This document shows positions 8,296-24,947 of a DNA stretch of 64,000 bases, one piece after another. The stretch is from a phage. Position 1 is the stretch's first letter; each line of letters begins with the position of its first letter. The translations under genes and the position numbers were made by a program. Location of the stretch: assembly GCA_012441205.1 (NCBI GenBank), contig GCA_012441205.1_4705.1; one strand, written 5' to 3'. The notes under the pieces were generated by a model. The model searched no databases. It saw nothing but the letters and a program-made list of their open reading frames with translations, and was not told the DNA's origin.

Positions 8296-10908
8296 TTAAG
8301 CGTCCGGCGTAAAATCAAAAGGAATGTCCGTACGAATGATATCATAACGTTTTCCGAGGAAATAAAACTCTTCGGGAACCTGACCGGGAATAATGCTATC
8401 ACCGATGAACTGCGGATACGCCCAGATGTACTGAGTGAGTCCTTCGAACATATCCAGGTTATTTGCGTGGTTACCCATGATACGTTTCCAGAGTTCGCGT
8501 TTATACGGCGTTTTAACATCGAAACCATAAAGCGGTGCAAGATCTTCACCAGGAACAAATCCCAGGTAATAGTGAATCTGACTAACCGGGAAACCAAGCG
8601 TATCTCGCGGAATGGTGATCGCTTGCTCAGCTTTGGTGACATGCGTTTCAATAATCCAGTCGTAGCACTCTGAATAGAACCGATCGAATTTCTCTGGATT
8701 ATACCACGCTTTGGGAAGATTCAGTTTCTCCGTGAACGCATTCGACATGATCGTCGGTAAGAACGGAAGAACACCGGTTTTGATCTGCGTGTATTTCGAT
8801 TTTACCCGGTTAGCCAAATTCCAGCAACTGTATCCTAACTGTTCGTTACAAAACTCAACGTAGAGATCGTAATCACCGCCGGATAATGGGTTGTTGATAT
8901 CACCAATGTCTGCAGCGTATTTGTTGGGATATCGGTTATTGAAAGCCAGTTTGGTTTGGTAATCGTAGATACACGGTTTGTTGTTCGCTGTATTGATCCA
9001 CCACCAGGGTTCACCCACCTGTACACAAATGTCCTGGACATGAGGGTAAATAATATCGGCAAACGCGGTTAACACATCCCCTAACCACGCCATCGCCTGT
9101 TGGTTACATGGAGACAGCAACCAGGACGGTGGTGTATATCCGGTTGCTGCGATGTTTCCTTCCCAATCCTGCTGCGCCCACTCGAACGGGCAGGCTGTAC
9201 TCATCAATTCGTAACTTAAACTGATGGTGACAGAGAAATGGTGTTTTGCAGCATATGCGGCGAAAGCTTCATGCCACGCGATACAGGGTGGATTTAATAC
9301 ATCCGTGGTGTTCACCAGTAACTTACCCGCACTTGGCGTCCAGACAGTATCGTAGAAATGCGACATTCCAACATAATGCACTAATTCATCTTGATACCCC
9401 GCATAAACCAGGTTCTCAAATACACGCTCTGGCGTGATGTTGTAATGGTCATCGTAAGCGGTTATCGCACGAAGTTCGTGTGGTGTACAGTGGTGACGAT
9501 TAACCGTCATTTCCTGATACACCCCATCGATAGGAAGAATCTCGAGGGTTAAACCGAGGTCGATTGGCGTTTCCAGATAGGTCGTTTCAGTCGCACCTTC
9601 CTTATAATGTCGAGAACTCATGCTGAACATCAACGATGCTACCGATTCGAGTTCGATAGGCTCGTCAGCATAGAACCCCGCCATTGCGTCATTGAAATCG
9701 ATCGTTACGATTGCGCTTCTACCGTCTTCAGAGACATCGGTGGCGTATCGGGTTAATGAGATATACTGACGGCTATCGTCTTTGTGTACGACGGTTAAAA
9801 CCGGCGGGTTTTCGGTATCTGCAAAGTTACGCTGATCGCCAGTAAACGTGATCTTCGCTTTAAAGATCAAACCGAATAACGACGTCATGGGATCATACGC
9901 AATACAACCGTGATCCAGCGTATCCGTTGTCCGCCATTCTATCCCGACCAACCCGTTAGCGGTATGGCATCGCATATACGCATTAAGGACCATGTCTTCA
10001 CTGACAACCGCGAAGTTCTCTGTTGACTGACCGTTGATAATCCAATACATCGGTTGCCAGAGGTTACGCGTACCTTTTGCGTAGCGGTAGGTTGGTGCGC
10101 CTTTAGGGTTGCCGTTATTGAGATGGAATACGGCAGTACCTTGATAATGGTCGTTCGTATTAATCGGAACACTGTAAGCGTCACCGAGGTCCGTACGTTC
10201 CACCTTCGTGACCGTTGCGTTTTCAAATAACCCACGCAACGCTGGTAAACCGATATCTTCAGGCGCGTTTTCTCGACGAATCGCATCCGCGATGCGATGG
10301 GCTAAGGCGGGGTAAATAGCTTCACCCTGTTGTAGGTTTGCAAGACCTACAAAGCGATCAGGGTCGATACCAGCAATCAATAACTCAACATCACCCTTCG
10401 TTCTATCGTCGTTAAGATATTTCAGTCCGGTAAGGTCAAGATGCTGAATAAGCGACAACAGGTTGTATTTACGGTTTTCAACAGTTAGTACAAGATCGCC
10501 TGCCCAAACCAAACTTCCCTCATCCGCTGTTACTTTAACGGATTGTCGGCCTGTGGTAGACGTTGTTGTCGTTTTATTTAATTGTCCTTGTAGGAAGTCG
10601 GTTGCGAGGTCAAAGGCAATACCGTAACGGTCAGCGACCGCTTGCATGATTTCACGTAACTGGGTATCTTCTTCAATGATAATCTTGACAGGTATTCCCA
10701 GGAACGCTTTAGCGAGGTCTCGTTTAACCAACGAGACGAATACGGATTTGTAGTATCGGCTTCCATCTTTCCCTTTAAAAAGAATGGAGGTTGTTTCGGG
10801 TGCCGATAGAACACGTGCAAATTCAACATCGTCGAAAGTAAGAGAAAGTCCGTTTTTCTCGTTGACCAATCTTAGTATTTCATTTTGCGCGGTTTCATGT
10901 AACTTCAT
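8296..10908 (-). CDS. receptor-binding protein (tail fibre/spike) with conserved N-terminal anchor domain and large unique C-terminal domain (870 aa)
   Basis: N-terminal 150 aa align with four other proteins (17249..19003, 16563..17090, 22652..23482, 59837..61291); GAGG SD. Confidence 0.7.
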   Translation of the reverse strand: MKLHETAQNEILRLVNEKNGLSLTFDDVEFARVLSAPETTSILFKGKDGSRYYKSVFVSLVKRDLAKAFLGIPVKIIIEEDTQLREIMQAVADRYGIAFDLATDFLQGQLNKTTTTSTTGRQSVKVTADEGSLVWAGDLVLTVENRKYNLLSLIQHLDLTGLKYLNDDRTKGDVELLIAGIDPDRFVGLANLQQGEAIYPALAHRIADAIRRENAPEDIGLPALRGLFENATVTKVERTDLGDAYSVPINTNDHYQGTAVFHLNNGNPKGAPTYRYAKGTRNLWQPMYWIINGQSTENFAVVSEDMVLNAYMRCHTANGLVGIEWRTTDTLDHGCIAYDPMTSLFGLIFKAKITFTGDQRNFADTENPPVLTVVHKDDSRQYISLTRYATDVSEDGRSAIVTIDFNDAMAGFYADEPIELESVASLMFSMSSRHYKEGATETTYLETPIDLGLTLEILPIDGVYQEMTVNRHHCTPHELRAITAYDDHYNITPERVFENLVYAGYQDELVHYVGMSHFYDTVWTPSAGKLLVNTTDVLNPPCIAWHEAFAAYAAKHHFSVTISLSYELMSTACPFEWAQQDWEGNIAATGYTPPSWLLSPCNQQAMAWLGDVLTAFADIIYPHVQDICVQVGEPWWWINTANNKPCIYDYQTKLAFNNRYPNKYAADIGDINNPLSGGDYDLYVEFCNEQLGYSCWNLANRVKSKYTQIKTGVLPFLPTIMSNAFTEKLNLPKAWYNPEKFDRFYSECYDWIIETHVTKAEQAITIPRDTLGFPVSQIHYYLGFVPGEDLAPLYGFDVKTPYKRELWKRIMGNHANNLDMFEGLTQYIWAYPQFIGDSIIPGQVPEEFYFLGKRYDIIRTDIPFDFTPDA

Positions 10909-10930: not shown

Positions 10931-11572
10931 TTAAATGTACTGCTTACCGCCCACGAAGGAAGTTAACCAGTTCCCGCTGACGAGTTGTGATACCCAGCCT
11001 GGAACGGCTCTACCATTCTGGCTCATGATGTTACCACACCAACCAGGGAATCCGGGACGGATGTAATAGAAAGTTAAATTGTAGAGATGGCAATTCCATA
11101 CCGCAACGTTATGTTTACCAGAAACCGCTTTAAAGACAAACGCGACAGGTAACGGAGACGATAACAATTCGGTCACAGGGACGGCTGACCAGTTCGCATT
11201 CGCGTTCCATGGTTGCCAGGTATGGCTGCGCGAGTCGCAATATACGTTACCGTTGTTACCGCGCCCACCCGCATTCCACCACAGCGACGGACTCATGTTC
11301 TTAAGTGAGGTAAATTGCTGCGGTGGAATATTAGGAATAATAACAGGGTTGGTACCTTGCCCATGTTTCTTTTCTTTTGCGTTCACATACCCGCTTATCG
11401 ATTCGAGGTATTTGACACCAGGATAATTATTCTGGACTTGTGTCGCAATATCACGAACATCGAACGTCCAGCAGATCATGGTGTTGTAGTAAGCATCGGT
11501 GTTGTCGTACCATGCGTTACCATCTTGTAAACGTGCGCCACTATTCGGTGTTTTATCTGTGTTTATAGCCAT
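10931..11572 (-). CDS. fibre-associated protein, paralog A (213 aa)
   Basis: C-terminal about 45 aa nearly identical to the protein at 11582..12349; lies between fibre genes. Confidence 0.6.
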   Translation of the reverse strand: MAINTDKTPNSGARLQDGNAWYDNTDAYYNTMICWTFDVRDIATQVQNNYPGVKYLESISGYVNAKEKKHGQGTNPVIIPNIPPQQFTSLKNMSPSLWWNAGGRGNNGNVYCDSRSHTWQPWNANANWSAVPVTELLSSPLPVAFVFKAVSGKHNVAVWNCHLYNLTFYYIRPGFPGWCGNIMSQNGRAVPGWVSQLVSGNWLTSFVGGKQYI

Positions 11573-11581
11573 AGTGTTGTC

Positions 11582-12349
11582 CTATACTGCGATGATTGAG
11601 ATATCGGATGCCGGATGTGTGTTGCCATCAGGTGGTACGTACAGAAACACCCACAGATAAAACAGTAGCTTCTCTAACTTCAATTTAATTGAAGTTAGAT
11701 ATTGTTTACCTCCAACAAACGACGTTAACCAATTACCTGAAACAAGTTGCGATGCCCAGCCAGGCACTGCCCTACCGTTCTGGCTCATCACGTTACCTGC
11801 CCATCCCGGAAAACCAGGTCGGAAAATATATACTTGAATATGTGTTAAAGCGTTATCATTACCACCGCCAACAGCAACGTTACGACTCCCAGATGACGGG
11901 AAATATTCTTTTAAGAACAGAGGATCGGTTGCTAATAAAGATGCGGGCCAAGGGTTCGCGGATGCATCAACATCGAATTCGGTCCATCGCCATTTACGTC
12001 CCGTGTCGAACCATGTCGATGTACCACCACCCCTCACGGCAAGATTGCGCGCATCACGGACATTATAAATTGATTCGATGTTACGCCATCCACCTTTTGC
12101 AGCGTTTGCTGCATAGCAAACCGCATTACCACCATTCTTCTTCTCGTAAACGGTTCGTTTGATATGAACACGGTCGATGAACGCTTCACCGTATTTGTTG
12201 ACGAGCGTTTGTGCGATATCACGAAGATCGTGCATGTGAAAAGCGATGTCTTCGTTATGGAACCATGTTGTCTGGTTCCAGACGGTACCGTTTGGTTCGG
12301 CACACATCGATCGGATATTGTTGCGTTGATTAATCGCGATAAAACCCAT
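11582..12349 (-). CDS. fibre-associated protein, paralog B (about 255 aa)
   Basis: homologous to 10931..11572 along its length; start set at ATG 12349 with GAGG SD (track ORF extends to 12436). Confidence 0.55.
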   Translation of the reverse strand: MGFIAINQRNNIRSMCAEPNGTVWNQTTWFHNEDIAFHMHDLRDIAQTLVNKYGEAFIDRVHIKRTVYEKKNGGNAVCYAANAAKGGWRNIESIYNVRDARNLAVRGGGTSTWFDTGRKWRWTEFDVDASANPWPASLLATDPLFLKEYFPSSGSRNVAVGGGNDNALTHIQVYIFRPGFPGWAGNVMSQNGRAVPGWASQLVSGNWLTSFVGGKQYLTSIKLKLEKLLFYLWVFLYVPPDGNTHPASDISIIAV

Positions 12350-12404
12350 TGTATACCTCGTTCCTATTCTCAAAAAGGAAATTTCATACGATGACGCCAT
12401 AGCA

Positions 12405-12434
12405 GCTCCTCCTTCCCTTACGGGTTGGAGGAGC
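12405..12434 (-). terminator. hairpin element, second copy of the 7279..7312 element
   Basis: reverse complement nearly identical to 7281..7312; no strong U-tract. Confidence 0.4.
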
Positions 12435-12442
12435 ATACTTAA

Positions 12443-12997: not shown

Positions 12998-15217
12998 TTA
13001 CTTTTTGAGCGCTTTAAGTTCTTCTTCCATCGCTTCCACTTTTGCCGTAAGCTTCTGTACTTGTTTGATTAATGGAACCACCAAACGTTCGTACATAACA
13101 CCTTCGGCGACGAGTCCGTTAGAAGAAACGATAGCGGGGTCATCTTCTTCGGTTGCATCACGCCAATGCACGTATTGTGGTGCGATCTCACCAACCTCTT
13201 CGGCAATCAACCCATACCAACCCCAATCCTTGTTGTCGGCTTCGCAGGTAGAACGATACCAGACAGGACGCATCTCCAATACTTTATCCGCTTGTTCATC
13301 CGTGATATTCTCGATATCTTTCTTATAGCGCCGCGACGACGTTGAACGAAACACATTGTTGATCCCAGCAGTAGGACTGATATACATATTAGCCCCGCTG
13401 GTTGTAGTGCTAATGTCCCATACCGCAAATCCGCCGTTACTCCCATTTCTCACGACCAACGTATTGGCAATAATATCCAGGTTATTGTTGTAACCGGTTA
13501 ACTGGTTTTCGGTGACAAAATCGGATAAGTTAACGGAGTAGTTCTTGCTGTTATAACAACGACGCCATCCTGGGCTGTTGGTGCTGCCATTATAGTTGTC
13601 GTAGCTATAAATGAACTCGGAGTTGGTTTTCGCACCACTGACGGAAGACGTGGTTGCGGTGGTAACACGGATAGTGTAGTTCGTCATCCCGAAGCTAACG
13701 ACCTCGATAACCGCACCAGCCAGAGGAATAATACCACATTTGGTTTCACTGTCTGGGATGTATGCGCTATCGGCAGCAGCGAAGGAGCAACGTGCGACCC
13801 AGGCACGGGTATTGAATGCACCTTGGTTCTGTAATAACGTAATAAACGATGAGGTCGTAATCGAGCTGTTATTATCACCTGTGATCAACCAGCCGGTTGG
13901 ACATGCGGTAGCACCAACGTTTTTCGCTGTTAGCGTGATGTTCTTCGATCCGTCGAAGGCTACGCCGCTGATGGTACGTGCAGTCTGTAGCTTCGTCGCC
14001 GTTGCCGCGTTCCCTGATGTGTTCTGGTTGCCTGTTGTATTCACACCCGGGATACTATCCTTAGATGTGTAGATCTGTGCCCATTCCGACCATTTCGCAT
14101 CGGTTGAATCACGACGTGAACGTAGGTAAGCTGGAGCGTGTGCACCCGAGGTACCTGACCATCCAATGAGGATTTCACCTTCGCCGACCGATGAAGCGCC
14201 TTTAAGATGAACAACGTTACCGTAGGCTGTAGGGTATCCGTTATTGTACGCTTCATACATCTGGATACCCGTATTGCTGCCCTGGGTCGCATTAGCTAAA
14301 GCGGTAACCCGTCCCTTGGAAGCGAGCACGTTAATGCTAAAGCTAATATCGGTTGTACCGTCAAAGGCGACCCCATTAATCCTCCGCGCTGTTTGGAGTT
14401 TCGTGGCAGTAGCCGCATTACCAGAGGTACTCTGATTGCCTGCTTTGTTCACACCTGGTAAATCAATGTTGGCGGTTCCATCAAAGGACACGCCCCCTAT
14501 GGTTCTCGCCGTCTGAAGTTTTGTTGCTGAACCAGCGTTTCCGGAAGTGCTTTGATTACCCGTCGCGTTGACACCTGGTAGGTTAATGCTAGCAGAACCA
14601 TCAAAAGAAACTCCACCGATCGTAATAGCTGTTCGCAACTTCGTGGCTGTCGCAGCGTTACCCGTCGTATTCTGATTACCAGCTGCATTGACGCCAGGTA
14701 ATGCGATATCAGCTGTGCCATCGAACGCGACACCTCCGATTTTACGGGCGGTTTGTAGCTTGGTTGCTGTAGCAGCATTACCGCTGGTATTTTGCGTACC
14801 GGCTTTATTTACACCAGGAAGATCGATGTTAGCAGAACCATCGAAGCTGACGCCACCTATCGTTCTTGCAGTAGCAAGTTTAGCGGCTGTAGCAGCGACG
14901 TTACCGACTTTTAACCATTCTCCCCATGGACCATCCACACCGTTCCATGATGCCGTTAAACTGCGCACGTATATGTTTCCTGTACGTACTGTGTAACGTT
15001 GTGTTCCACCGAATTGACCGGCTGGGAGCACTTCGATGTAACCTACAGCATTTGCTTCAGGGAAATTGTGGGCAGCATCGGCATTCGTTGATGTTTGTTT
15101 GGACCAAATACCCACAGACGCTTCAACCGGACCGTAGGTATCCAGATTTGCATCGGTGGGGAGCTGTCCTCGAAAACGTCGGAATAATGAAGCCGATAAC
15201 CCCAACGTTGTTTGCAT
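12998..15217 (-). CDS. long tail fibre, distal segment with tandem fibre repeats and C-terminal intramolecular-chaperone (S74-like) domain (739 aa from first ATG)
   Basis: about 40-aa repeats GNAATATKLQTARTIGGVSFDGSANIDLPGVN; C-terminal YKKDIENITDEQADKVLEMRPVWY...GLIAEEVGEIAPQYV; frame stays open upstream of the ATG to 15325. Confidence 0.8.
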   Translation of the reverse strand: MQTTLGLSASLFRRFRGQLPTDANLDTYGPVEASVGIWSKQTSTNADAAHNFPEANAVGYIEVLPAGQFGGTQRYTVRTGNIYVRSLTASWNGVDGPWGEWLKVGNVAATAAKLATARTIGGVSFDGSANIDLPGVNKAGTQNTSGNAATATKLQTARKIGGVAFDGTADIALPGVNAAGNQNTTGNAATATKLRTAITIGGVSFDGSASINLPGVNATGNQSTSGNAGSATKLQTARTIGGVSFDGTANIDLPGVNKAGNQSTSGNAATATKLQTARRINGVAFDGTTDISFSINVLASKGRVTALANATQGSNTGIQMYEAYNNGYPTAYGNVVHLKGASSVGEGEILIGWSGTSGAHAPAYLRSRRDSTDAKWSEWAQIYTSKDSIPGVNTTGNQNTSGNAATATKLQTARTISGVAFDGSKNITLTAKNVGATACPTGWLITGDNNSSITTSSFITLLQNQGAFNTRAWVARCSFAAADSAYIPDSETKCGIIPLAGAVIEVVSFGMTNYTIRVTTATTSSVSGAKTNSEFIYSYDNYNGSTNSPGWRRCYNSKNYSVNLSDFVTENQLTGYNNNLDIIANTLVVRNGSNGGFAVWDISTTTSGANMYISPTAGINNVFRSTSSRRYKKDIENITDEQADKVLEMRPVWYRSTCEADNKDWGWYGLIAEEVGEIAPQYVHWRDATEEDDPAIVSSNGLVAEGVMYERLVVPLIKQVQKLTAKVEAMEEELKALKK
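13936..14908 (-). repeat. in-frame coding repeats of the tail fibre (about 120-nt unit, about 5 tandem copies at 14344..14908 plus one distal copy at 13936..14047)
   Basis: repeats visible in both DNA and translation; copies are diverged. Confidence 0.6.
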
Positions 15218-15281
15218 CCCTTCAATGCTTGACTGCGATAGAAGCGCCCGAGCTGTCGACGTGATGGCCGCTAAAGCAACC

Positions 15282-16556
15282 TTATCCGTACCGGTAAAAA
15301 AACGGGAATTTGTTTGCTGATGTTGCTAAACCTGAAAGGGCGGTCAGTAATGCGTTAAGGGGTTGTTTCCCGGCTAGCGCGTTAGTCACAGTCGTTGCAA
15401 AGTTTGGATCATTACCTAACGCTTGAGCTAACTCGTTAAGCGTATTTAGCGCTTCTGGAGACGAGTCGATCAGCGACGCGATAGCACGCATCACAAATTC
15501 CGTGTTGGCGATCTGTTGACTGCTATCGTTCTCTGCAGCCGTAGGTGCTGCTGGGATACCGGTGAACACAGGGTTATTAAGATCCGCCTTAAGGGCGATG
15601 AGACGTCTAAGTGCTTCAACATCGACTTTCAGGTTTTCCCATCCGACGAGATAACCATCACCGGTTGTGTGATAACGGTTGTACCAAAAATCGCCATTAA
15701 CGCCAAAATAAAATATTCCCTTCTCTTCGTATTGTGGGCCAGAACTGTTCCGTGATGAGCTAATGTATTTTATTTCGATAAGGCCGTTGAATACCACTCC
15801 TGGGATAATTTTGTCGTTTCCAGACGATTGCGATACCTGGTAAGCCCCCGGTGTTGTGGCTCTAACCCAAGTCAAGAATTCTGATGTTCCAGCGTTACCG
15901 CTAAAACGCTTGACGTCGGTAAGTATCGCACCAAAACCGAACATACCGGGTAAAGCAACTCGCCCATCGGTACGGTCACGAATATCTGTTGCAACAACAG
16001 GCAACTGCTTACGAACATCATTAACTGCTTTAGGTGTCGCTGATTTTGTCTCATCGTCGCTATCGATATCACTGCTCAGGATGGTCAGTCCTCGAGTATC
16101 TGTGGTTGCATCAGGAAGAAACGCGTTATCTAACACCTTAAGCTGTATCGCATCCGTGTTATTAACAACAACATACACTTGACAGTTAAGAACGCTGGTT
16201 GCGCCTTCGGTAGGCACAGGCTTGTATCTTTCTGGTGCACTGCATACGGCGACCAGAACACCTTGATTGTCATACAGACCGATCTCACGTACCCAGAACC
16301 CACCTTGACTGGCAGGAATAATACCCTCAACAATAATCCTGGTTGTGTCGTCAACATCAATACGGATGTTGGAAACTTCCCCACGATAAACTTCGTGTAC
16401 AAGTGCTGTTTGGCTAGCATCGGGGGTTGGTGTAGAACCGTTGCCATCACCAACGGCAAAATGCGTAATTCTTAGTTTCTCACCGTCAGGAAGTAATGCT
16501 GCGGTGATACGTTCAGCGCCTTTATCGGTAATGACCGTTTTATAAGTTGTACTCAT
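15282..16556 (-). CDS. tail fibre, N-terminal segment (P2 gpH-like tail-collar fibre domain), ends prematurely at the T7 run (424 aa)
   Basis: MSTTYKTVITDKGAERITAAL...ITHFAVGDGNG...QTALVHEVYRG...GGFWVREIGLYD matches the P2 H / tail-collar fibre N-terminal domain. Confidence 0.85.
   Translation of the reverse strand: MSTTYKTVITDKGAERITAALLPDGEKLRITHFAVGDGNGSTPTPDASQTALVHEVYRGEVSNIRIDVDDTTRIIVEGIIPASQGGFWVREIGLYDNQGVLVAVCSAPERYKPVPTEGATSVLNCQVYVVVNNTDAIQLKVLDNAFLPDATTDTRGLTILSSDIDSDDETKSATPKAVNDVRKQLPVVATDIRDRTDGRVALPGMFGFGAILTDVKRFSGNAGTSEFLTWVRATTPGAYQVSQSSGNDKIIPGVVFNGLIEIKYISSSRNSSGPQYEEKGIFYFGVNGDFWYNRYHTTGDGYLVGWENLKVDVEALRRLIALKADLNNPVFTGIPAAPTAAENDSSQQIANTEFVMRAIASLIDSSPEALNTLNELAQALGNDPNFATTVTNALAGKQPLNALLTALSGLATSANKFPFFYRYG
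15296..15302 (-). other. T7 homopolymer (A7 on plus strand) at the frame change joining the two tail fibre segments
   Basis: removing one T fuses ...ANKFPFF to TGTDKVALAAITSTARALL... in frame. Confidence 0.55.
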
Positions 16557-16562: not shown

Positions 16563-17090
16563 TTATCCCGGGTAAATAGTGATGACATCACCGATGACAG
16601 TTGCCGCACCGACGCAAAGATACGCTGGTGATGTATCACGCTGGTTTGTCACGATAAGATCCAATTGCCCACGCCAAACCATGGAGGTATTCGCGATGGG
16701 AATCGAGATCTTCTTGGAAGTATCGTCACGAAAATTAATGGCGGTAGCAAGGGTAGCTGAATCAAAATCAACGTCGGGTTCAAAGTTGAAACCGTATTGA
16801 TCCGAAATAGCTTGAATAACCGCTCTTATGGTTGTTGTTTCAACCGACTCCAAAACGATTTTTATCGGTATTCCTAGAAATGCTTTCGCTATATCACGCC
16901 GTGTGTAAGTGATAAAACTTTCACCACACCACCTTGTTCCTTCATTTGCTGTGACGATCACTTTTGCCCTGTTAACACCAGAACTCCCATCCAGGGTTAA
17001 AGTGAGATCGGAGTTGCTGAATACACTACTGTTACGTTGGTTTATCAACGTAATAAGTTCGTCTTTCCATGGTGGGTAAAGTGAACGCAT
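16563..17090 (-). CDS. anchor-domain protein, short paralog (175 aa), immediately upstream of the tail fibre gene
   Basis: MRSLYPPWKDELITLINQRN...RRDIAKAFLGIP aligns with the conserved N-terminal domain; start set at ATG 17090 with GGAGGAGGG SD. Confidence 0.65.
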   Translation of the reverse strand: MRSLYPPWKDELITLINQRNSSVFSNSDLTLTLDGSSGVNRAKVIVTANEGTRWCGESFITYTRRDIAKAFLGIPIKIVLESVETTTIRAVIQAISDQYGFNFEPDVDFDSATLATAINFRDDTSKKISIPIANTSMVWRGQLDLIVTNQRDTSPAYLCVGAATVIGDVITIYPG

Positions 17091-17195
17091 AAGCGCACCC
17101 TCCTCCAACAATCGAATTAATATGCAAAAACGCCTCGAAACAGGAGTGCGATTCGAGGCTAACGTAAACAGTCTTAACGACCGCATAAAATTCCG

Positions 17196-17240
17196 CGCAT
17201 ATTGCCCCTCTATCCCGACAAAGCGAGATAGAGGGGAGGA
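17196..17240 (-). terminator. hairpin after CDS 17249..19003
   Basis: 10-bp stem CCCCTCTATC/GATAGAGGGG with 12-nt loop; weak U-tract. Confidence 0.35.
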
Positions 17241-17248
17241 TAATACGA

Positions 17249-19003
17249 TTATGCTGCTACATATCCAGGCCAACGTTCTCTTGGCCAGTTTGTTGCGCCC
17301 TGTCCAACGTTGTCCTTACCAGAAATTACATTACTTACGTCCCAACCACTAAGATCCTGGTTAAATGCGGTGTTGTTACGCATCATGAGGTCGATATTAC
17401 GTAATGATTGGGTATTCCAGCCGGAAATGTCTTGGTTGAATGCCGTGTTGTAAGCAAACATGTTAACAACGTTTTGTAATTTTGAAGTGTTCCAGCCGCT
17501 AATATCGCCATTGAACTGCATGCTCGAGAACATACTGCTAGCATCGATAAGACTATCTGTTTTCCAGTTAACCAGCTTGTTTTCATCAAGTGCGTTGCAA
17601 CTACTGAACATGTAACTCATGTTGTTAACTTTGGATACATCCCATTTATCTAACCCGTTACCAACGAACTCGTAACAAGCTTGGAACATCCAGCTCATGT
17701 CGGTAACCTGGCTCACATTCCATTTGCTAAAGTCGAGGTTGAGTTTTGCGCATCCGGAGAAAGTTTTATACATACTGGTGATACGACTAACATCCCATTC
17801 TTGAATGTTAGGATCATTAAGTATAGATAAGAATTGGAACAATCCGTCTAACGACGTCCATTTCTCTGGAATACGGTTTGGTACTGTACGGAGCGATGAA
17901 AGGTTATTGGTTGACGGAGAGCGGAACATACCGTTATCCCAATTTACGATTTCCGTAATGTTGTACCCACGGATCGTTTGGCGTCCATTACCATTATACA
18001 CAGACCCTGTTGCAGTTATTGTATATTCGTTTGTATCAGCATACGTATGTTCAGCCTGTGTAGGCCACTCACCTATTACATCCCTATTCCCATCACCCCA
18101 ATCGATGGAAATATTTGTCCAACCATCAAGATCTAGGGTAACGGTCCCGCCATTGGTCTTCAGGATGTATTTACCTGCATTGTCGGTATAATAACAAACG
18201 ATCATCGCACCGTACAGGTTACCAATTTGCCAATCATCCTTTTGAGTTACCGCGATATGTGCTGTGCCACGTTGTAGGAAAAGAACCGTACGGTTCTCGT
18301 CAGTCTGTAATGTGGTTAATGCTTGAGCCTTATCATCGTCGGTAATTTCACCAGCTTCCACTAAAGCACTTAACATTCTTTCGAAGTATTCGATGGGTAA
18401 TTGGTGTCCTACAGACATATCAACTGATGGAACAGCGAGATCATCCAATGCGGCGGCAGTTGCAAGCACTAATGATCCATTGGTGGTGTCTGTTTCTTGG
18501 AGGTAATGCAGTCCCGTAATCTGGTACGCTTGAATGATTGTAATCAGATCCAGCGTATCGTTAATGACCTGTACTTGTAAATGTCCAGACCAAACATAGC
18601 TGCTTTCAGCAATCGGTAATTCGACCGACTGAATACCCGATGTTTCAAAACTGATCTTCTTATTAAGATCGGCTTCCAGGAAATCAACCGCGAGGTCGAA
18701 ATTTATACCGTACTTTTCAGCGATGGAATCTATGATGTTCCTGAAAGCAACATCGGTACTTACGATGAATCGTAAAGGGATTCCTGTGAACGCATTAGCA
18801 ATATCTCGACGAACATACGTAAGTGATTGTTCGAAGAAATAGGGACTGTTATCTCCAGGTTTGATGGTTACCTGACACATTTCAGGATGTTCAGCTGGGA
18901 TGAACGATTCAAATTTAACATCGGATTCCTTCAACGAAAGCATGTTCTTCCGGTTTACCAGCGCCAGAAGATCGGCTTTCCATCCAGGATAAACAGTAGA
19001 CAT
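17249..19003 (-). CDS. receptor-binding protein: N-terminal anchor domain, PKD-like motif and C-terminal BspA/DUF285-type repeats (about 584 aa)
   Basis: anchor alignment; ISIDWGDGN...HTYADTNEYTI; repeats WDVSxVTxMxxMFxxCxxFNxDISxW; start set at ATG 19003. Confidence 0.7.
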   Translation of the reverse strand: MSTVYPGWKADLLALVNRKNMLSLKESDVKFESFIPAEHPEMCQVTIKPGDNSPYFFEQSLTYVRRDIANAFTGIPLRFIVSTDVAFRNIIDSIAEKYGINFDLAVDFLEADLNKKISFETSGIQSVELPIAESSYVWSGHLQVQVINDTLDLITIIQAYQITGLHYLQETDTTNGSLVLATAAALDDLAVPSVDMSVGHQLPIEYFERMLSALVEAGEITDDDKAQALTTLQTDENRTVLFLQRGTAHIAVTQKDDWQIGNLYGAMIVCYYTDNAGKYILKTNGGTVTLDLDGWTNISIDWGDGNRDVIGEWPTQAEHTYADTNEYTITATGSVYNGNGRQTIRGYNITEIVNWDNGMFRSPSTNNLSSLRTVPNRIPEKWTSLDGLFQFLSILNDPNIQEWDVSRITSMYKTFSGCAKLNLDFSKWNVSQVTDMSWMFQACYEFVGNGLDKWDVSKVNNMSYMFSSCNALDENKLVNWKTDSLIDASSMFSSMQFNGDISGWNTSKLQNVVNMFAYNTAFNQDISGWNTQSLRNIDLMMRNNTAFNQDLSGWDVSNVISGKDNVGQGATNWPRERWPGYVAA

Positions 19004-19041
19004 AAGCACTCCAATCATGGGGCGGTAACCGCCCCCATCAG

Positions 19042-22000
19042 TTAAATTGTCGGTTTCACGTCGCGTAATAGGGCAATATAATAGCCTAATCCTCGGAGGA
19101 TCTCCCCACTCCAGAAACCAAAATACATTCCGTCTCTGCCGAGATTAGCACTATCTGGTGCAGGACTCCACCCACCATTCATTGCGTCATCAACGGTGTA
19201 GCGGTTGATGTAGTTTTCAACGATTTCATTATAAACGTTAACGGCAACAGGATAGCCTTTATCGTTGGGATGCCCATACAACATCGCTAACGACGCACCC
19301 GCTAACCATAATCCTGCCATATGACCAGTAAAGTCATTAGGGATAAAAGCAGGGGGTTTATCCATCGGAAAATCCGTAGGAGATTGATAAGCGTTTTCCT
19401 GTTGATACGTAAACAAGAAATCGATCCAATGGCTGATGTAAGTGGTTAACTTCTCAGGGACAGCCAAACCATGATCGAGCAGTCCGGCATAAAGCCTCAC
19501 CGCTGAAAAGAAAGCCCTCGGCTGATAACCAGACCATGCTGTCTGATCGCCGAAGTGGTACATCGTAAAATCATTAACTTTCGATCCGCTTGGCGCATCC
19601 CAACGATCCCACACGTACGCACTTGCTCCTGGCCCTAAAACCCCGAATTTCTGATAATACCACTGCTGCGAGTCATACCAGAAATTCACAACATTCTGAA
19701 TCATGAGGTCACGTCGTTCAGCCGATACGTCCATATCCAGGAAGACCCATGGATGTTGGTAGCCGGGATAAGGCTGACCACGCCAGCTGTCGAACGTCGG
19801 TGCGTTAGGGATATAGTTGTTCGAGAACGGAATAATACCCGGAGTATAAGGCAATGGATCCAGACGTTGGTTGACAATCGTACAATCGCCAACACGCAAT
19901 GTGCCCTCTGCCTCAAAGATTGCTTTTAACGTAAACAGCATGGTATATCCGTCATCCGTGGTGTAAGTTGACGGTGGATTGTTGATGGCGTAAAGCTTAA
20001 ATACCCCTTCAGCGATATCGCTGTCATCAGGCAAGAACAGAATTTCAGTTGAACCGTCGCCCCACACAGGTGCGGAAGGTTTAGGGTCAGTATCAGCATG
20101 GCCAGGTTGATACCCTGAGAGCCTCCATCCGTTCGCCGAAAGCGTCAATGTATTTCTTGCTGTGGTGGCCGGTAGCATATACCACCATCGCCAACCATTT
20201 GCATCTTCTACACGAACGTTGTAGTCAATCGACGCGAAATAACTGACCTGCCTTACGATCTGTTTTGCGGTTGGATTGAATTCAAATTGTCCGCCTGCCG
20301 CAGTAAGCTGCGCTTTTAGGAACAACCCATCCCAGGAATCTTCCACTGCTTCGCTGAATTCTGTTGTGATTGCGATATCGTCTTTCCAGCCGACTTTATC
20401 AGCCGACATCAACACCGAACCTGTAACAGCATCACCGGTTGGTATTGAAGCTTCATCAACCGCATCAGCGGGAATCAACGAGCCTATTTTGAAATCCCAT
20501 CCTTTCGGTTCAACGCTGGAAGGTAATACCAGCTTGTACGTTTTGGCTTTCGCTTCGGTTTTGTCCAAAGAAAGCGATAATGAGATCTCAACCGGAATTG
20601 CAACGCCTGTCGTATCTTTACCGCCGCAGGTTACCCGAAGAATTGAATCACGATTGACGCGGAACGGAATGGCCTGCTGTTCAAGGTAAATTTGTGCTGA
20701 AGATGCTTGAATCACGATCCAACCATCGGTATCACGCGTGATTGTGAACGGCGCTTTCGACGGGTATGTATACGTGTAAGCGATACCGTCGGTGTCGTAA
20801 CGATCGGTTCCTTTTACTTGACGGAAGAACTTATCGTTAGCGTCAATACGGGTATATTCTTCAATCGTAAACAAAGACGCCTTGTACGCTTTCTGATAAC
20901 GCTCCTGCTGCGTTAAACGGTATAAGGTGTAGGCTGCTTCACAAAACCACTGTTCAGCGTCTGACGCGTTTCCCATGTAGTCTCTGGTGACTGGTACCTG
21001 GATCGGTCGGTTATGCTGACACTCGTTCGTTTTGATGAGGTATCCGCCATATTCAACAGGAACACGCGGTGCCCATGCAACCAAGTAAGAACCGTTGACG
21101 GATTTATCTTTGAGTACGATAGTACCTACTTCATCGTCAGTACACGCTTCAAGATCGTCCCCGTCAGCACTTACGTAACGTTTTGTGCGTAACGCAACTT
21201 TCTCGATAGGGAACACCGTACCCTTTGTATCCCAGTCAATCGTCCCATCATCATTGGTTTTGAACACATCCGCGTTCAAATTCTGCCAGCCGAGTTTACC
21301 TTCATAGACCTGAACAACAAGATCCATGTATTCCCCGAACGTTGGTGCCCCATGTGTTATTTTCCCGATACCGTTGGTGAATGTAACCGCTGTGTCATGG
21401 AAACCGCCATGTGTTGGGTAATCGTCTTTTGCAAGAGGATAATGGGCCAACACAGGTTGTTTACCATTAACAATCCAGTTAGCGATCCAGCGTGCCGGTG
21501 TATCCGGTGGTTCAAGGCCTGCATAGAACGCTTTTATATACGCATCGAACGATGCCTCTGCTAATGTGAGATAGTGCGCTTTAAGCTTGGTATCATCCGT
21601 TGTATGACTGAATATACCCGCACCCAGAATTAACAACGACTGTCCTTCTGTTGTTGCGTCACCATCCGGTTGTGCTTCTTGTCGTGTTGCTGCAATGAAA
21701 TGACGGTTGTTTACCATGACCCCGCTTTCATTTAACACGTAATGATCGGTTTCTGGGTCGGTAAACGTTCCTGTGTTTCGGGTTAAGAATCTTGCATGGC
21801 CATAACCAACGAAATTAACCGGCGACGCTGTAATCATCCATTTACCGATAAGTTGAGCAACATCATTATAACGCTCGGATGCGGTGATTTGTTTCACGTA
21901 CCAGTCTTTATGGTTAAATGTCCAAAGCAGGAAGTAATAAGTTGTATCGATTTCCATCACTGGGAACGTCGGCGTTAACGGCTCCAGCGTTAAGTAGTTG

Positions 22001-22638
22001 CTCCAGTCAATCTGTCCGCCAACCACCGATGGGGTAATCTCTAATAACTGACACCATTCATAACGGTCCGGTACACTACTGGACGTTGTTGGTAAAGGTA
22101 ACTTGTATACGCCAGTACGATTCAGATCGAACGCTTTTCTAGCCGATCCTAAATCAACATAAATACTCGATGATGCGCTTGCACTATATGCCCCCAAAGC
22201 ACCTAGCGTTGACCGATACATTGAGATGAACAACGTATCTTTCCAGTAAGGGTTATCCTTGGTTGGTTCTAAAGCGATTTGTGCGGAGATGCTGTTCCAT
22301 GTCCCTAACTGGTATGTCGCATTTAAAGATTCTTCTGTGAAATAACTTTCTGCAATCGTCAGATGGAACTGCTCGTTCAATAACGCGAGTGCGGCGCGGC
22401 CAGTAACATCCTCGTTACCGGTTTCTTTTTTCACGATCGCGCCGAACGGAAACAGTGTCGCGAATGACCGTTTTGGTTTATTAACCGTAACCGTCCCTGT
22501 GTAATTTCCAACACCGTCAAGTTTTTGACTATCGCCAACAGCAGTGACTGCGATACCATCAGCCGGGATATTTGTTTTATTTAGTACATTGAGTTGGTCA
22601 ACCAGATCCTGCTTATCGTCAGGTAAGAATGTCGCCAT
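19042..22638 (-). CDS. large tailspike-like protein, possible depolymerase (1198 aa)
   Basis: very long ORF directly downstream of an anchor-only gene; AAGGTGGAG SD; no catalytic motif recognised. Confidence 0.65.
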   Translation of the reverse strand: MATFLPDDKQDLVDQLNVLNKTNIPADGIAVTAVGDSQKLDGVGNYTGTVTVNKPKRSFATLFPFGAIVKKETGNEDVTGRAALALLNEQFHLTIAESYFTEESLNATYQLGTWNSISAQIALEPTKDNPYWKDTLFISMYRSTLGALGAYSASASSSIYVDLGSARKAFDLNRTGVYKLPLPTTSSSVPDRYEWCQLLEITPSVVGGQIDWSNYLTLEPLTPTFPVMEIDTTYYFLLWTFNHKDWYVKQITASERYNDVAQLIGKWMITASPVNFVGYGHARFLTRNTGTFTDPETDHYVLNESGVMVNNRHFIAATRQEAQPDGDATTEGQSLLILGAGIFSHTTDDTKLKAHYLTLAEASFDAYIKAFYAGLEPPDTPARWIANWIVNGKQPVLAHYPLAKDDYPTHGGFHDTAVTFTNGIGKITHGAPTFGEYMDLVVQVYEGKLGWQNLNADVFKTNDDGTIDWDTKGTVFPIEKVALRTKRYVSADGDDLEACTDDEVGTIVLKDKSVNGSYLVAWAPRVPVEYGGYLIKTNECQHNRPIQVPVTRDYMGNASDAEQWFCEAAYTLYRLTQQERYQKAYKASLFTIEEYTRIDANDKFFRQVKGTDRYDTDGIAYTYTYPSKAPFTITRDTDGWIVIQASSAQIYLEQQAIPFRVNRDSILRVTCGGKDTTGVAIPVEISLSLSLDKTEAKAKTYKLVLPSSVEPKGWDFKIGSLIPADAVDEASIPTGDAVTGSVLMSADKVGWKDDIAITTEFSEAVEDSWDGLFLKAQLTAAGGQFEFNPTAKQIVRQVSYFASIDYNVRVEDANGWRWWYMLPATTARNTLTLSANGWRLSGYQPGHADTDPKPSAPVWGDGSTEILFLPDDSDIAEGVFKLYAINNPPSTYTTDDGYTMLFTLKAIFEAEGTLRVGDCTIVNQRLDPLPYTPGIIPFSNNYIPNAPTFDSWRGQPYPGYQHPWVFLDMDVSAERRDLMIQNVVNFWYDSQQWYYQKFGVLGPGASAYVWDRWDAPSGSKVNDFTMYHFGDQTAWSGYQPRAFFSAVRLYAGLLDHGLAVPEKLTTYISHWIDFLFTYQQENAYQSPTDFPMDKPPAFIPNDFTGHMAGLWLAGASLAMLYGHPNDKGYPVAVNVYNEIVENYINRYTVDDAMNGGWSPAPDSANLGRDGMYFGFWSGEILRGLGYYIALLRDVKPTI

Positions 22639-22651
22639 TATTTACTCCACC

Positions 22652-23482
22652 TTAATCGTAACTAAAATAAAGTTTGCTGCTGACGCCGCTATCGGAATGA
22701 GGTTTTAACACCAGAACAGAGCTTCCGAACGACGGAAGTATTGGAACATCTAAATCGTTCGCATCGGCAACTTTTCCATTATAAACGACATTGGCTGTTG
22801 TGATGAGTTCCCAGGCTAAGGTATAACTCATTGAAATCAGCGACGAGGCTAAACGGAATGCATTGTATCCTTCTGGAGTATCTCCAACCGACATCGTACG
22901 TATCGCATCTTGCGGCGGTAAATTTAGCTTGATGCCGTAGGTGCTGAATGTGTGGAAATCCCCTTGTTTACTATCTTCTGGATAATACGAGGTTAGCGGT
23001 TCTCGCACCGTAATCAGTTCGCTAATATCGGTACTTACCGCTTTTCGGGCGAGGAATTGAAACGTACCGTACCACGATGCTGATGTATCAGAATGAACGG
23101 GAACAGCTATGGTTTTCTCGTCGCTTTCAAATTTAACCTGCGACACTAACGCTGAAGAATCAAAGATCGTTAAATCGATCTTCAACCCATACTTCTTAAA
23201 CAGCTGCGTTAAGCAGTCTGCTATCGTCGTCTTATCAGCAACGACAATAAAAGGTTGGTGTTTGATAAAGAGCTTATTAATGTCTCGACGTTGAAGATAA
23301 ACCTGTACGGGGTCTTCGATATAGTAAGCCGATTGTGGTGCGGGGACTATAGAAAGGCGTAACCGACCTGATGCACCATACCAGGCTGGCGTTAACGTAA
23401 CGTCTGACAGAGACAACGGGTGCTGGAGATAGGCGTTTATTTTAGATAACACTTCCTCCTGCCATGATGCTTCAGGATACAT
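22652..23482 (-). CDS. anchor-domain protein, divergent paralog (276 aa); first gene of the fibre operon
   Basis: W..EVL..IN...LSLSDVTL...YYIEDPVQVYLQRRDINKLF...YGLKIDL aligns with the conserved anchor domain; GAGG SD. Confidence 0.65.
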   Translation of the reverse strand: MYPEASWQEEVLSKINAYLQHPLSLSDVTLTPAWYGASGRLRLSIVPAPQSAYYIEDPVQVYLQRRDINKLFIKHQPFIVVADKTTIADCLTQLFKKYGLKIDLTIFDSSALVSQVKFESDEKTIAVPVHSDTSASWYGTFQFLARKAVSTDISELITVREPLTSYYPEDSKQGDFHTFSTYGIKLNLPPQDAIRTMSVGDTPEGYNAFRLASSLISMSYTLAWELITTANVVYNGKVADANDLDVPILPSFGSSVLVLKPHSDSGVSSKLYFSYD

Positions 23483-23540
23483 GCTGACCTCATAGATGAT
23501 CGTTGATAGGAAAGAAACCTAATTCATACCATGGGAGCCT

Positions 23541-23606
23541 CAAAAAAAAAAAAAAAAACGAAAAAATAGGAAAACGGTGTTCATCCTTTTTAGGGATGAA
23601 CACCGC
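23541..23606 (-). terminator. intrinsic terminator after CDS 23626..24201
   Basis: 11-bp stem GGTGTTCATCC/GGATGAACACC followed on minus strand by a T-rich tract including T17. Confidence 0.6.
23542..23558. repeat. A17 homopolymer (T17 on minus strand)
   Basis: read directly. Confidence 0.9.
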
Positions 23607-23625
23607 GTACCGTTATATCGAACGA

Positions 23626-24201
23626 TTAATGAGGAATCAGATCGTTAAGCTTTTCTTCTTCAATGACAAAGAAGTTGTTCTGGTCGTCTAAATCTGTTAA
23701 CAGGACTTGTCCGACAGTAAAGCACGTACCGCCCTTCTTAGGCACCCATACCGGCTCATTCGTTACCTTATCGGGATACCATTTGAAACGATTGGTATCC
23801 AAGAAGAACGCTGCTTTGTTTGCTTTATCGGTTGAACGATAGCTAACCAATGCAGGCCACTCAATCCAGGTGTTTGTGCATGGTACATGTAAAGGATACC
23901 ATGCGCGCCAGCGTTTGCCCGGACTGTTAGGATCAACCCAATACTCGGCAGTCAATACAGCATCTTTATAATGTTTCTGCATTAACATTTCGAGCACAAG
24001 CTCATTGCCTTTTGATGCGTCTAAAGTCACTTCCGTCATATAAAGAGATTTAGGTAATTCAGACTGTTTTGCGGGTGTTACAACACCGGTAACCAACGGT
24101 CTGCTCGGTTTACGTTTCTGTTCTTTCCGACGTGTGTAAAAGAATAGTCCGATAGATACAGCAACAAGTATAATAAACAACACTACCTTAATCCAATTCA
24201 T
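23626..24201 (-). CDS. membrane-anchored protein (191 aa)
   Basis: N-terminal TM helix WIKVVLFIILVAVSIGLFFY; GGAGA SD; ATGA overlap with upstream gene. Confidence 0.6.
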   Translation of the reverse strand: MNWIKVVLFIILVAVSIGLFFYTRRKEQKRKPSRPLVTGVVTPAKQSELPKSLYMTEVTLDASKGNELVLEMLMQKHYKDAVLTAEYWVDPNSPGKRWRAWYPLHVPCTNTWIEWPALVSYRSTDKANKAAFFLDTNRFKWYPDKVTNEPVWVPKKGGTCFTVGQVLLTDLDDQNNFFVIEEEKLNDLIPH

Positions 24202-24947
24202 TCGTCAATATCTCCTTCCACAAACAGAGTCAATTTGATTTCAGGATCATAGAACATGGTAATCACATCATCTTGCTCTACTGAACGCTGTGCTGTCCAT
24301 ATTAACTGTTCATCCCGAATATCAAATTTATGTCGTTCGTCACTCACCACAGCTTCCGCATCAACGTAATGGTAAACATCACCGAGAGGATTCTCAATCC
24401 AGCCGCGTACCATCAAACGTTCTTTTTGTTTACGTGTAAAGAAGCGATAGGGATCTTCGCACGTGCGCCATACGTCCCCCTTCTCGCTAACCAGTTCATC
24501 ATAAACTTTAGAGAGTTCGTCAGGCACCGGAATCAAAATGTTATCTTGATAGTTCGACCAGAAACGACGTACGTCTTGGATCAACTCATCGTCTGGGAGT
24601 TTAGTCGCTATGTTACTATAATCGATTTCAACAGTATCGATATCAAGACGGGTAAACGGAAGAGCGTCTAGGTTTCCCACCATGACCTCGATCTGATCAT
24701 GATGGACACGAATCCATCCATCGAACCATCTGTACCCATCAGCTTGATATAACGTTGTGTGATAAGTGACGACGTTAATATCCTCGAACGATTCTAATAA
24801 GGCTTTAGCGGCTAAAAGCGGTGAAAAGTTCTTCGATTGTCCTGGTTTACGTATTTCTTCTTTGATAAACAATTTACCGAGCAGTGGGTGTTCGATAACA
24901 AAACCACAGGAAAGCATGATGCTTCCTTGATAACGTGCTTCTTGCAT
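24198..24947 (-). CDS. hypothetical protein (249 aa)
   Basis: ORF with AAGGAAT SD. Confidence 0.6.
   Translation of the reverse strand: MQEARYQGSIMLSCGFVIEHPLLGKLFIKEEIRKPGQSKNFSPLLAAKALLESFEDINVVTYHTTLYQADGYRWFDGWIRVHHDQIEVMVGNLDALPFTRLDIDTVEIDYSNIATKLPDDELIQDVRRFWSNYQDNILIPVPDELSKVYDELVSEKGDVWRTCEDPYRFFTRKQKERLMVRGWIENPLGDVYHYVDAEAVVSDERHKFDIRDEQLIWTAQRSVEQDDVITMFYDPEIKLTLFVEGDIDE

Follow-up and report, generated by a model that had tools for sequence, protein, structure and literature searches.

A DUF7941-only protein and a candidate DUF7941-tethered glycosidase encoded by adjacent genes of a Goslar-like jumbo phage

The gene pair and its genomic context

The window, a 64,000-nucleotide stretch of phage DNA, belongs to a phage closely related to Escherichia phage Goslar, with 96% nucleotide identity. 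Two adjacent minus-strand ORFs in it, each opening with ATG, code for proteins of 276 and 1198 residues (p276 and p1198; Table 1). The TAA stop of the p276 gene is followed by a 13-nt spacer, ggtggagtaaata, and then directly by the p1198 start; the GGTGGAG of this spacer is a Shine-Dalgarno-like site placed 6 nt 5' of that ATG. The ORF listing and this site confirm the arrangement given in the original prediction, namely an anchor-only gene followed after a short gap by a 1198-residue ORF with its own ribosome-binding site. Both are real genes, and two relatives that have diverged further, L005 and L006, possess the same pair, with gaps of 10-13 nt and a second gene coding for exactly 1198 residues. 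Upstream of the p276 gene we observed a terminator-like hairpin with a 13-bp stem (23606..23574) and a T19 run, while inspection of the sequence between the two genes revealed no terminator; their co-transcription is therefore plausible.

The direct orthologs of the pair in Goslar are gp093 and gp092 (YP_009820778.1 and YP_009820777.1), genes that are already annotated and discussed for that phage. They have the same order and spacing, gp092 likewise has 1198 residues, and the two pairs share 96.4% DNA identity, with p1198 and gp092 being 97-98% identical in amino acid sequence. Stand-alone orthologs of p276 are 273-281 residues long, with identities ranging from 92% down to 60%. The gene order, in which the pair is followed by a gene combining DUF7941 with DUF285, a 175-residue DUF7941 protein and the tail fibre, is kept in L005 and L006. 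The DUF7941-DUF285 gene is syntenic in both of these relatives and absent from Goslar, from which the present phage thus differs by this additional gene directly downstream of the pair and by a split tail-fibre gene. It is this downstream fibre that forms the variable part of the locus.

Table 1. Features of the locus, all on the minus strand; coordinates are those of the window
Feature	Coordinates	Strand	Basis
Terminator-like hairpin and T19 run, dividing the unit from the upstream gene	23540..23606	-	sequence
p276 gene, putative adaptor or chain unit, ortholog of Goslar gp093	22652..23482	-	ORF, Pfam DUF7941
p276 N-terminal globular domain, residues 1-150	23033..23482	-	AF2 pLDDT 66-91
p276 linker (~151-194) and C-terminal domain (~195-276)	22655..23032	-	invariant residues in ortholog alignment
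Intergenic spacer, 13 nt, with GGTGGAG ribosome-binding site	22639..22651	-	sequence read directly
p1198 gene, ortholog of Goslar gp092	19042..22638	-	DUF7941 N-terminal domain, linker and glycosidase-like module
p1198 divergent DUF7941 N-terminal docking domain, residues 1-142	22213..22638	-	hhalign, secondary structure
p1198 disordered Ser/Ala-rich linker, residues 143-192	22063..22212	-	pLDDT <50
p1198 β-rich segment, residues 193-258	21865..22062	-	pLDDT 50-68 (low), alignment A4
Predicted barrel part 1, residues 259-388, with TTE331GQS	21475..21864	-	helices 260-287, 330-346, 350-371
Inserted β-sandwich, residues 389-555	20974..21474	-	DSSP all-β, pLDDT 77-97
Predicted barrel part 2, residues 556-617, with NASD560AE562QW	20788..20973	-	conservation, BcsZ alignment
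Inserted CBM-like β-sandwich domains, residues 618-922	19873..20787	-	DSSP, Foldseek
Predicted barrel part 3, residues 923-1198	19045..19872	-	six long helices
589-residue protein, DUF7941 N-terminal domain and DUF285/PARCEL (BspA-like) repeats	17249..19018	-	next gene in cluster
175-residue DUF7941 protein, gp091 ortholog	16563..17090	-	last of four-gene DUF7941 cluster

DUF7941 docking domains in both proteins

Over its full length p276 consists of the DUF7941 module alone. The Pfam profile (PF25613) matches residues 56-275 across profile positions 63-274 of 276, with 38.3 bits (E 1.4e-9) against a gathering cut-off of 27 bits. A Foldseek search of the PDB with the N-terminal domain recovered a sole match below 1e-3, chain 0 of 9xqd (written 9QXD in the preprint cited next), from the outer peripheral baseplate of phiKZ (E 8.6e-6, probability 1.00, 146 columns). 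This 150-residue chain is the N-terminal domain of phiKZ gp127 (Basu et al., 2026, bioRxiv 10.64898/2026.04.21.720040), which makes the latter a structural homolog of the p276 domain at 18% identity; a sequence-profile search with p276 gave no match to the same chain. The AF2 monomer model has low confidence in the linker and C-terminal domain. The linker carries a PLTS-YPED motif at 162-170 that is invariant in the ortholog alignment, and its D170 is unchanged in all paralogs encoded in the window. The anchor-only character proposed for this protein is thus borne out by a full-length DUF7941 match and by an N-terminal domain resembling a phiKZ baseplate chain.

In contrast, the proposal that p1198 is a spike lacking an anchor of its own does not hold, as its N-terminus is a divergent DUF7941 domain. 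Profile-profile comparison of residues 1-144 with the DUF7941 N-terminal domain (hhalign, alignment A4 against A3) gave a probability of 96.7% and an E-value of 3.9e-10. Residues 1-142 have the same H-E-E-E-H-E-H-H-E-E order of elements as the p276 N-terminal domain. The Pfam model itself matches residues 45-142 below threshold (18.2 bits for a cut-off of 27, E 0.0019), and five of the six members of the p1198-domain family match it at E<=1, the best at 5.7e-6. The linker that follows is the least conserved segment of the protein (62-74% identity in the L005 and L006 orthologs, as against 93-100% for the C-terminal module), and its similarity to the p276 linker is non-significant (E 0.24). Residues 193-258 showed no alignment to the DUF7941 C-terminal domain with hhalign; this segment is common to P0002, P0003 and P0105 and is 91-100% conserved among orthologs. 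In another jumbo phage, a canonical DUF7941 is fused to the same C-terminal module within a five-gene DUF7941 cluster.

The glycosidase-like module of p1198

Pfam, NCBIfam and PDB sequence searches recovered no family spanning the module. On the basis of its structural model, it is confidently predicted to form an (α/α)6 barrel interrupted by CBM-like β-sandwich domains. For the inserts as a group, Foldseek returned CBM-type jelly rolls, namely CBM11 (1v0a, 6r31; probability 1.00, target TM 0.43-0.52) and a CBM22 tandem (4xup), and phrog_23426 matches residues 788-891. The predicted fold contains no right-handed parallel β-helix, p1198 shows no sign of a trimeric spike, and the module is probably monomeric. 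Hence, of the enzymatic spike originally envisaged, the carbohydrate-active fold sought by Foldseek is predicted, leaving the fold-based expectation standing, while the β-helix has to be given up.

The module belongs to a large family: the phrog_2871 'tail protein' profile matches residues 279-1190 over its full length (E 1.5e-296), and we retrieved 93 homologs and 520 phage records at a coverage of at least 80%. Homology extends over the whole of residues 281-1198, at 36-48% identity for most members and 28-31% for the rV5-like and Vibrio phages, with dozens of invariant residues. The members include rV5 ORF42, proteins of Phapecoctavirus/phi92-like phages, Rosemountvirus, phiEa21-4, N4-like Philippe and SPN3US-like phages, and 940-residue proteins of E. 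coli prophages; unlike p1198, most of them begin about 20 residues ahead of the barrel, without DUF7941. Their place in the tail differs among the myo-, sipho- and podoviruses that encode them. Among them we found none with a tested activity in the literature that we searched.

Within the genus, the module is the most conserved part of p1198 (93-100% identity across Goslar, L005 and L006), and barrel part 2 is 100% identical in every ortholog. In the divergent L005 and L006, identity falls to 58-76% for the adaptor and 62-85% for the anchor and linker of p1198, a pattern that contradicts an exchangeable enzyme. These data bear on the possibility that p276 is an anchor-only adaptor for an exchangeable, trimeric β-helix-type depolymerase of capsule or O-antigen that sets serotype host range. 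The short gap between the adjoining genes, the docking module standing alone in p276 and the carbohydrate-active fold of p1198 would all accord with it. However, the predicted fold is an (α/α)6 barrel with β-sandwich inserts, p1198 has a DUF7941 domain of its own, the module retains 93-94% identity even in a relative from a Salmonella assembly, and the variability of the locus lies in the tail fibre instead. Moreover, homologs that share about 40% identity and retain the invariant residues come from Gluconobacter genome assemblies as well as from phages infecting Vibrio, Erwinia, Aeromonas and Stenotrophomonas. With these residues unchanged in over 500 phages whose hosts differ widely, the target is unlikely to be a hypervariable capsule or O-antigen, which tells against the candidate capsule or LPS depolymerase of the original prediction. 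Fold and conservation pattern together largely refute a β-helix depolymerase tailspike, which we regard as highly improbable.

Several of the conserved residues recall those of GH8 (clan GH-M). E331 of the TTE331GQS motif, at the N-terminus of helix 330-346, is kept in 37 of 38 homologs, D560 and W564 in all 38, and E562 in 37. The two motifs TTE331GQS and ASD560AE562 are colinear with TSE55GQS and ASD116GD of E. coli BcsZ, with E331 aligning to E55 (position 55 is Q in the BcsZ structure 3qxq, an E55Q variant). The barrel part 3 motifs PYPGYQ, WDRWD, WSGYQPR, TGHM and FWSGE1179 are likewise conserved and located at helix N-terminal ends. p1198 thus resembles GH8 in having a predicted (α/α)6 barrel and an [ST]EGQ glutamate that opens an inner helix, while it differs in the two large β-domain insertions that break the barrel; its identity to GH8 proteins such as BcsZ, C. 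thermocellum CelA and CPF_2247 (3ren) is 8-14%. None of the 38 module family members gave a match to any Pfam model, that of GH8 (PF01270) included, and hhalign comparisons with BcsZ or with an alignment of seven GH8 sequences were not significant (P 0.05-0.24). It is conceivable, though quite improbable in our estimate, that the module belongs to another (α/α)6 class, such as the GH88/GH105 unsaturated uronyl hydrolases, the GH76 mannanases or the AGE-type epimerases/isomerases, and, instead of being a GH8-like endo-glycanase, acts on mannans or on the products of lyases.

A further alternative is that the module has no catalytic function and serves as an adhesin or as a structural part of the baseplate, an old glycosidase fold having been kept for glycan binding or protein-protein scaffolding without hydrolysis. 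In a low-confidence extended hhalign alignment, the GH8a base, D243 of BcsZ (YDAIRV), pairs with Ser1045 (SAVRLY), and no CAZy-type family shows significant sequence similarity to the module. The rV5 homolog is encoded immediately behind the baseplate genes and that of an E. coli prophage immediately behind the tail-tube gene, positions that hint at a structural slot, and the very high conservation is also compatible with structural constraints. Against this, near-invariant acidic and aromatic residues are grouped at the N-termini of every second barrel helix, on what is canonically the active-site face. Retention of the proton-donor motif is near-universal among the homologs, and the single divergent paralog, P0105, has lost it together with many neighbouring residues; furthermore, the GH8a, GH8b and GH8c subfamilies place the catalytic base at different positions. 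We deem a purely non-catalytic role unlikely.

A candidate baseplate sub-complex and its relation to known systems

Our preferred reading, in which we have moderate confidence, is that in a Goslar-like chimallivirus p276 and p1198 are DUF7941 host-recognition components located at the peripheral baseplate, with p276 tethering an enzyme that binds and probably hydrolyses a glycan. DUF7941 modules would join in a head-to-tail manner, each protomer using its linker and C-terminal domain to bind the N-terminal domain of its neighbour, such that p276 would link p1198 either to a DUF7941 chain or to the peripheral baseplate. The tethered module may then bind, and probably hydrolyse, a surface or matrix polysaccharide conserved among hosts rather than a serotype-specific capsule, with E331 as a GH8-like acid acting alongside D560/E562. 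The p276-p1198 contact, the catalysis and the substrate are all three what we infer from the above observations.

The docking step follows the published Goslar/phiKZ model, a non-peer-reviewed one built on AlphaFold (AF3) predictions and on gp22 filaments formed in vitro (Basu et al., 2026). In that work, a phiKZ gp126-gp127 head-to-tail dimer was fitted into neighbouring density, the peripheral baseplate density of Goslar is left unassigned, both Goslar orthologs are among ten DUF7941 proteins of that phage, and peptides of gp093 and gp092 were detected in purified virions (Table S4), at about 4.8 and 4.9 copies, respectively, by rough label-free mass spectrometry. From these estimates near 5 we infer about six copies each of p276 and p1198 per virion. 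That preprint gives no separate attention to gp093 and gp092 as a pair or to their equal copy estimates, nor to the GH8-like motifs and the pattern in which the module is conserved.

More tentatively, and as a speculation that may well not hold, the phrog_2871 module (~920 residues) could be a new GH family distantly related to GH8, carried by phages in the hundreds, among them myo-, sipho-, podo- and jumbo phages. Its substrate would be a glycan conserved across Proteobacteria or Enterobacterales, for example biofilm cellulose or another β-linked matrix or common-antigen polymer. In Goslar-like phages the module would be displayed at the six baseplate corners by a defined, stoichiometric DUF7941 hetero-chain running from p276 through p1198 and p589 to p175, instead of in the random 'fibre cloud' suggested to date.

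Little is understood of how nucleus-forming jumbo phages recognise their hosts, and neither Goslar nor phiKZ has a model of its peripheral baseplate as yet. The pair offers a concrete candidate sub-complex, comprising a DUF7941-only adaptor and a DUF7941-tethered putative enzyme at equal low copy number. As the module family is very widespread in phage tails, lacks a Pfam model and has no characterised member that we found, knowledge of its substrate would shed light on many groups of phages employed in therapy, such as the rV5-like, phi92-like and Rosemountvirus phages.

Among known systems, phiKZ gp127 and gp126 differ from p1198 in being without an enzyme module. In CBA120 and G7C, attachment is branched and involves several proteins. 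Classical tailspikes such as P22 gp9, the K1F endosialidase, the CBA120 TSPs and the phi92 colanidase are likewise virion-borne and carbohydrate-active and have an N-terminal adaptor domain. However, they are trimeric β-helix or β-propeller proteins in which the anchors are conserved and the catalytic parts vary strongly, whereas p1198 is predicted to have an α barrel, is probably monomeric, has a flexible tether, and its putative catalytic part is the conserved one.

A conserved gene pair with DUF7941 docking domains

The region studied shows 96.4% DNA identity to Escherichia phage vB_EcoM_Goslar, a nucleus-forming jumbo phage. Its 276-residue and 1198-residue proteins, hereafter p276 and p1198, are the orthologs of Goslar gp093, annotated as 'hypothetical protein', and gp092, annotated as 'tail protein'. 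The window is colinear with Goslar at 19007-25030, while 17262-19006 is an insertion compared with that phage. Both genes, their DUF7941 domains, their presence in the virion and the predicted glycosidase and carbohydrate-binding domains have already been reported for Goslar (Basu et al., 2026; bioRxiv 10.64898/2026.04.21.720040). The present analysis adds a study of the GH8-like motifs, the case, made from equal stoichiometry and synteny, for gp093 and gp092 forming a pair, and the conservation pattern along p276 and p1198.

Features of the locus and of related contigs
Feature	Location	Strand	Remarks
276-aa gene (p276)	window 22652..23482	-	ORF list, ATG start
1198-aa gene (p1198)	window 19042..22638	-	ORF list, ATG start
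Terminator-like hairpin, 13-bp stem	window 23606..23574 (whole element including T19: 23540..23606)	-	upstream of 276-aa gene
589-aa gene	window 17249..19018	-	DUF7941 N-terminal domain and DUF285/PARCEL (BspA-like) repeats
236-aa TTG ORF	window 16563..17273	-	overlaps upstream gene; homology from Met62 on
175-aa gene (gp091 ortholog)	window 16563..17090	-	most likely the real gene
Split tail fibre, two ORFs (424 aa, 739 aa)	window 12998..16556	-	
Adjacent 213-aa and 284-aa proteins	window 10931..12436	-	mutual paralogs, 35-38% identity, E 1e-32
870-aa gene (gp086 ortholog)	window 8296..10908	-	full DUF7941 module, then NCTSP_N and TIM-barrel_NCTSP Pfam domains
Five consecutive DUF7941 genes	L002 (233-kb jumbo-phage contig) 5446..14340		515, 160, 153, 1072, 1010 aa
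rV5 ORF42	L003 8956..11553		stand-alone module homolog
E. coli prophage (lambda-like) gene	L013 9001..11823		940-aa stand-alone module homolog

Both minus-strand reading frames are present as originally predicted, and the 13-nt gap and separate ribosome-binding site proposed for the larger gene are confirmed by the junction, which reads ...TAC GAT TAA ggtggagtaaata ATG GCG... and holds a Shine-Dalgarno-like GGTGGAG within the spacer, 6 nt 5' of the p1198 start. The two genes are not separated by a terminator. Ahead of p276, after the 191-aa gene upstream, comes a strong hairpin with a run of 19 T residues on its 3' side, an element that is probably a terminator bounding the DUF7941 gene cluster as a separate late transcription unit. 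The 16-25 kb interval of the window yielded no Rfam families and nothing meaningful in a repeat scan. Plus-strand ORFs within the two genes (e.g. 20276..20689) were dismissed as spurious shadows of the conserved minus-strand genes.

Downstream, the 589-aa gene is inserted after the gp092 ortholog and before that of gp091, a position at which Goslar does not have it. Since two more divergent Goslar-like relatives (L005 and L006) carry it, the gene was probably lost in Goslar. For the gp091 ortholog the shorter, 175-aa form was preferred because homology begins only at Met62 of the 236-aa ORF. The tail fibre that follows is split: its 424-aa ORF corresponds to residues 1-420 of the single-chain fibres (Goslar gp090 and those of L005 and L006), and its 739-aa ORF matches the L006 fibre from about residue 446 and ends in a Peptidase_S74 intramolecular chaperone domain, where Goslar has a separate tail-fibre-assembly gene instead. 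Possible reasons for the split are a frameshift or stop, an error in the assembly, or two genuinely separate genes. The 213-aa and 284-aa proteins have no Pfam match, and the colinear Goslar region apparently encodes just one of them. The gp086 ortholog is a second DUF7941-tethered enzyme-like protein in the window; NCTSP in its Pfam domain names stands for non-contractile tail sheath protein.

Docking domains in both proteins

p276 matches DUF7941 over its full length (Pfam PF25613, 38.3 bits vs a cut-off of 27), its orthologs (273-281 aa) are stand-alone, and its N-terminal domain has paralogs in the window at the start of the 589-aa, 175/236-aa and 870-aa proteins. PDB sequence searches with p276 and with the DUF7941 alignment (profile A3) gave no significant match. 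AF2 models just the N-terminal domain (1-150) with confidence, and the model has one significant match in the PDB, chain 0 of 9xqd (E 8.6e-6), an entry entitled 'outer peripheral region in the phage phiKZ baseplate complex'; this 150-residue phiKZ chain has been assigned as the gp127 N-terminal domain (Basu et al., 2026). Given the full-length DUF7941 match and the match to a peripheral baseplate chain, 'anchor-only' is a fair label for p276, a docking module and nothing else.

The large protein had in turn been taken as the anchor-less partner of this separate adaptor, a view that does not hold. BLAST found no similarity between p276 and the p1198 N-terminus, and neither did hhalign when a shallow profile of p276 orthologs was set against the p1198 N-terminus as a single sequence; a word-indexed homolog search starting from the first 285 residues returned near-identical fragments only. 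An exhaustive HMMER scan recovered three distant relatives, and the link to DUF7941 became detectable only once such distant homologs had joined the profile: the N-terminal family then matched the DUF7941 alignment over residues 1-144 with hhalign probability 96.7% and E 3.9e-10. Five of the six family members match Pfam DUF7941 at E<=1, p1198 alone being sub-threshold (E 0.0019). As its secondary-structure elements also come in the same order as in the N-terminal domain of p276, p1198 has a docking domain of its own, followed by a disordered linker (residues 143-192, pLDDT <50). The same conclusion on the docking domain was reached for gp92 (Basu et al., 2026).

Several observations bear on the two proteins acting as a pair. 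L005 and L006 share the order p276, p1198, DUF7941+DUF285 protein (about 585 aa), 175-aa protein and tail fibre, with a second protein of exactly 1198 aa in both. Published estimates per Goslar virion are 3.3/4.9/7.7 copies for gp092 and 3.2/4.8/7.5 for gp093 (Table S4 of Basu et al., 2026); gp086 is similar (about 4.5), while gp033 and gp161 reach about 110, the fibre gp090 about 43 and gp091 only about 1 (Basu et al., 2026). The gp092 and gp093 values agree with each other and are roughly six-fold, from which we infer one pair at each corner of the baseplate. Another jumbo phage (L002) has a cluster of five DUF7941 genes; its 1072-aa protein joins a canonical DUF7941 domain to the p1198-type enzyme module, and its 1010-aa protein has a faint DUF5122 match. 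Clusters in which short DUF7941-only genes precede DUF7941-effector fusions are therefore recurrent. By analogy with the head-to-tail docking model proposed for DUF7941 proteins (Basu et al., 2026), the linker and C-terminal domain of p276 could capture the p1198 N-terminal domain.

A GH8-like, probably enzymatic module

Residues 281-1198 of p1198 fall in phrog_2871 (E 1.5e-296), a large family with high conservation, for which there are 93 homologs at 28-48% identity and 532 phage records, most members being stand-alone proteins of 920-1000 aa. Those of rV5 (directly after the baseplate genes) and of an E. coli prophage (after the tail-tube gene) occupy different structural slots and have almost no N-terminal anchor. 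No family in Pfam (window proteins and 38 homologs) or NCBIfam covers the module, the sole Pfam match at E<=10 being GH47 at chance level, and PDB sequence searches with p1198, the family profile A1 and a 121-aa barrel segment gave nothing significant. The AF2 model of p1198 (pLDDT 83, pTM 0.73) has eleven long helices and a short one (260-267), read from the model as an (alpha/alpha)6 barrel broken up by beta-domains at 389-555 and 618-922.

With E. coli BcsZ as the GH8 reference, TTE331GQS of p1198 corresponds to TSE55GQS (residue 55 is Q in PDB entry 3qxq) and ASD560AE562-W to ASD116GD-W. The first of these is exactly the best local hhalign match between the module and GH8. Under permissive settings four of four GH8 motifs are colinear, but with P 0.05 this is not significant, and in the same non-significant alignment BcsZ D243 lies opposite Ser1045. 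The P 0.05 is that of a profile restricted to the barrel, compared with seven aligned GH8 sequences (E. coli BcsZ and plasmid homologs); formal membership in GH8 is not established. Among the homologs D560 and W564 are conserved in 38/38, and E331 and E562 in 37/38. The conserved motifs lie at the N-terminal ends of alternate helices, the canonical active-site face of such a barrel. By motifs and modelled fold the module is thus GH8-like, and probably catalytic. A divergent metagenomic relative (P0105, 1334 aa) combines an N-terminal DUF7941-like module with the barrel; because the TTEGQS Glu and many adjacent invariant residues have been lost, it may be a paralog without catalytic activity. 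The literature searched yielded no characterised homolog of the module and no phage tail enzyme of GH8-like type; its only hits were GH87 and GH89, false positives that share the prefix.

Conservation pattern and likely target

The enzyme module (259-1198) is the most conserved segment, with identities to the window proteins of 97-100% in Goslar, 95-100% in L005 and 93-100% in L006, the last from a Salmonella assembly. The corresponding values are 93-98%, 67-76% and 58-61% for p276, and 94%, 74-85% and 62-77% for the p1198 anchor and linker (1-192). The original prediction of an exchangeable enzyme is thus not supported, p276 and the anchor and linker being the parts that diverge in L005 and L006; what varies at the locus is the tail fibre further downstream. 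This pattern is the opposite of that of swapped receptor-binding proteins. Because of it, and of the about 40% identity among phages of many genera, a conserved glycan is a more likely target than a capsule or O-antigen type. A similar argument has been made in the BASEL paper for conserved fibre-locus genes of rV5-like phages (PMC8594841).
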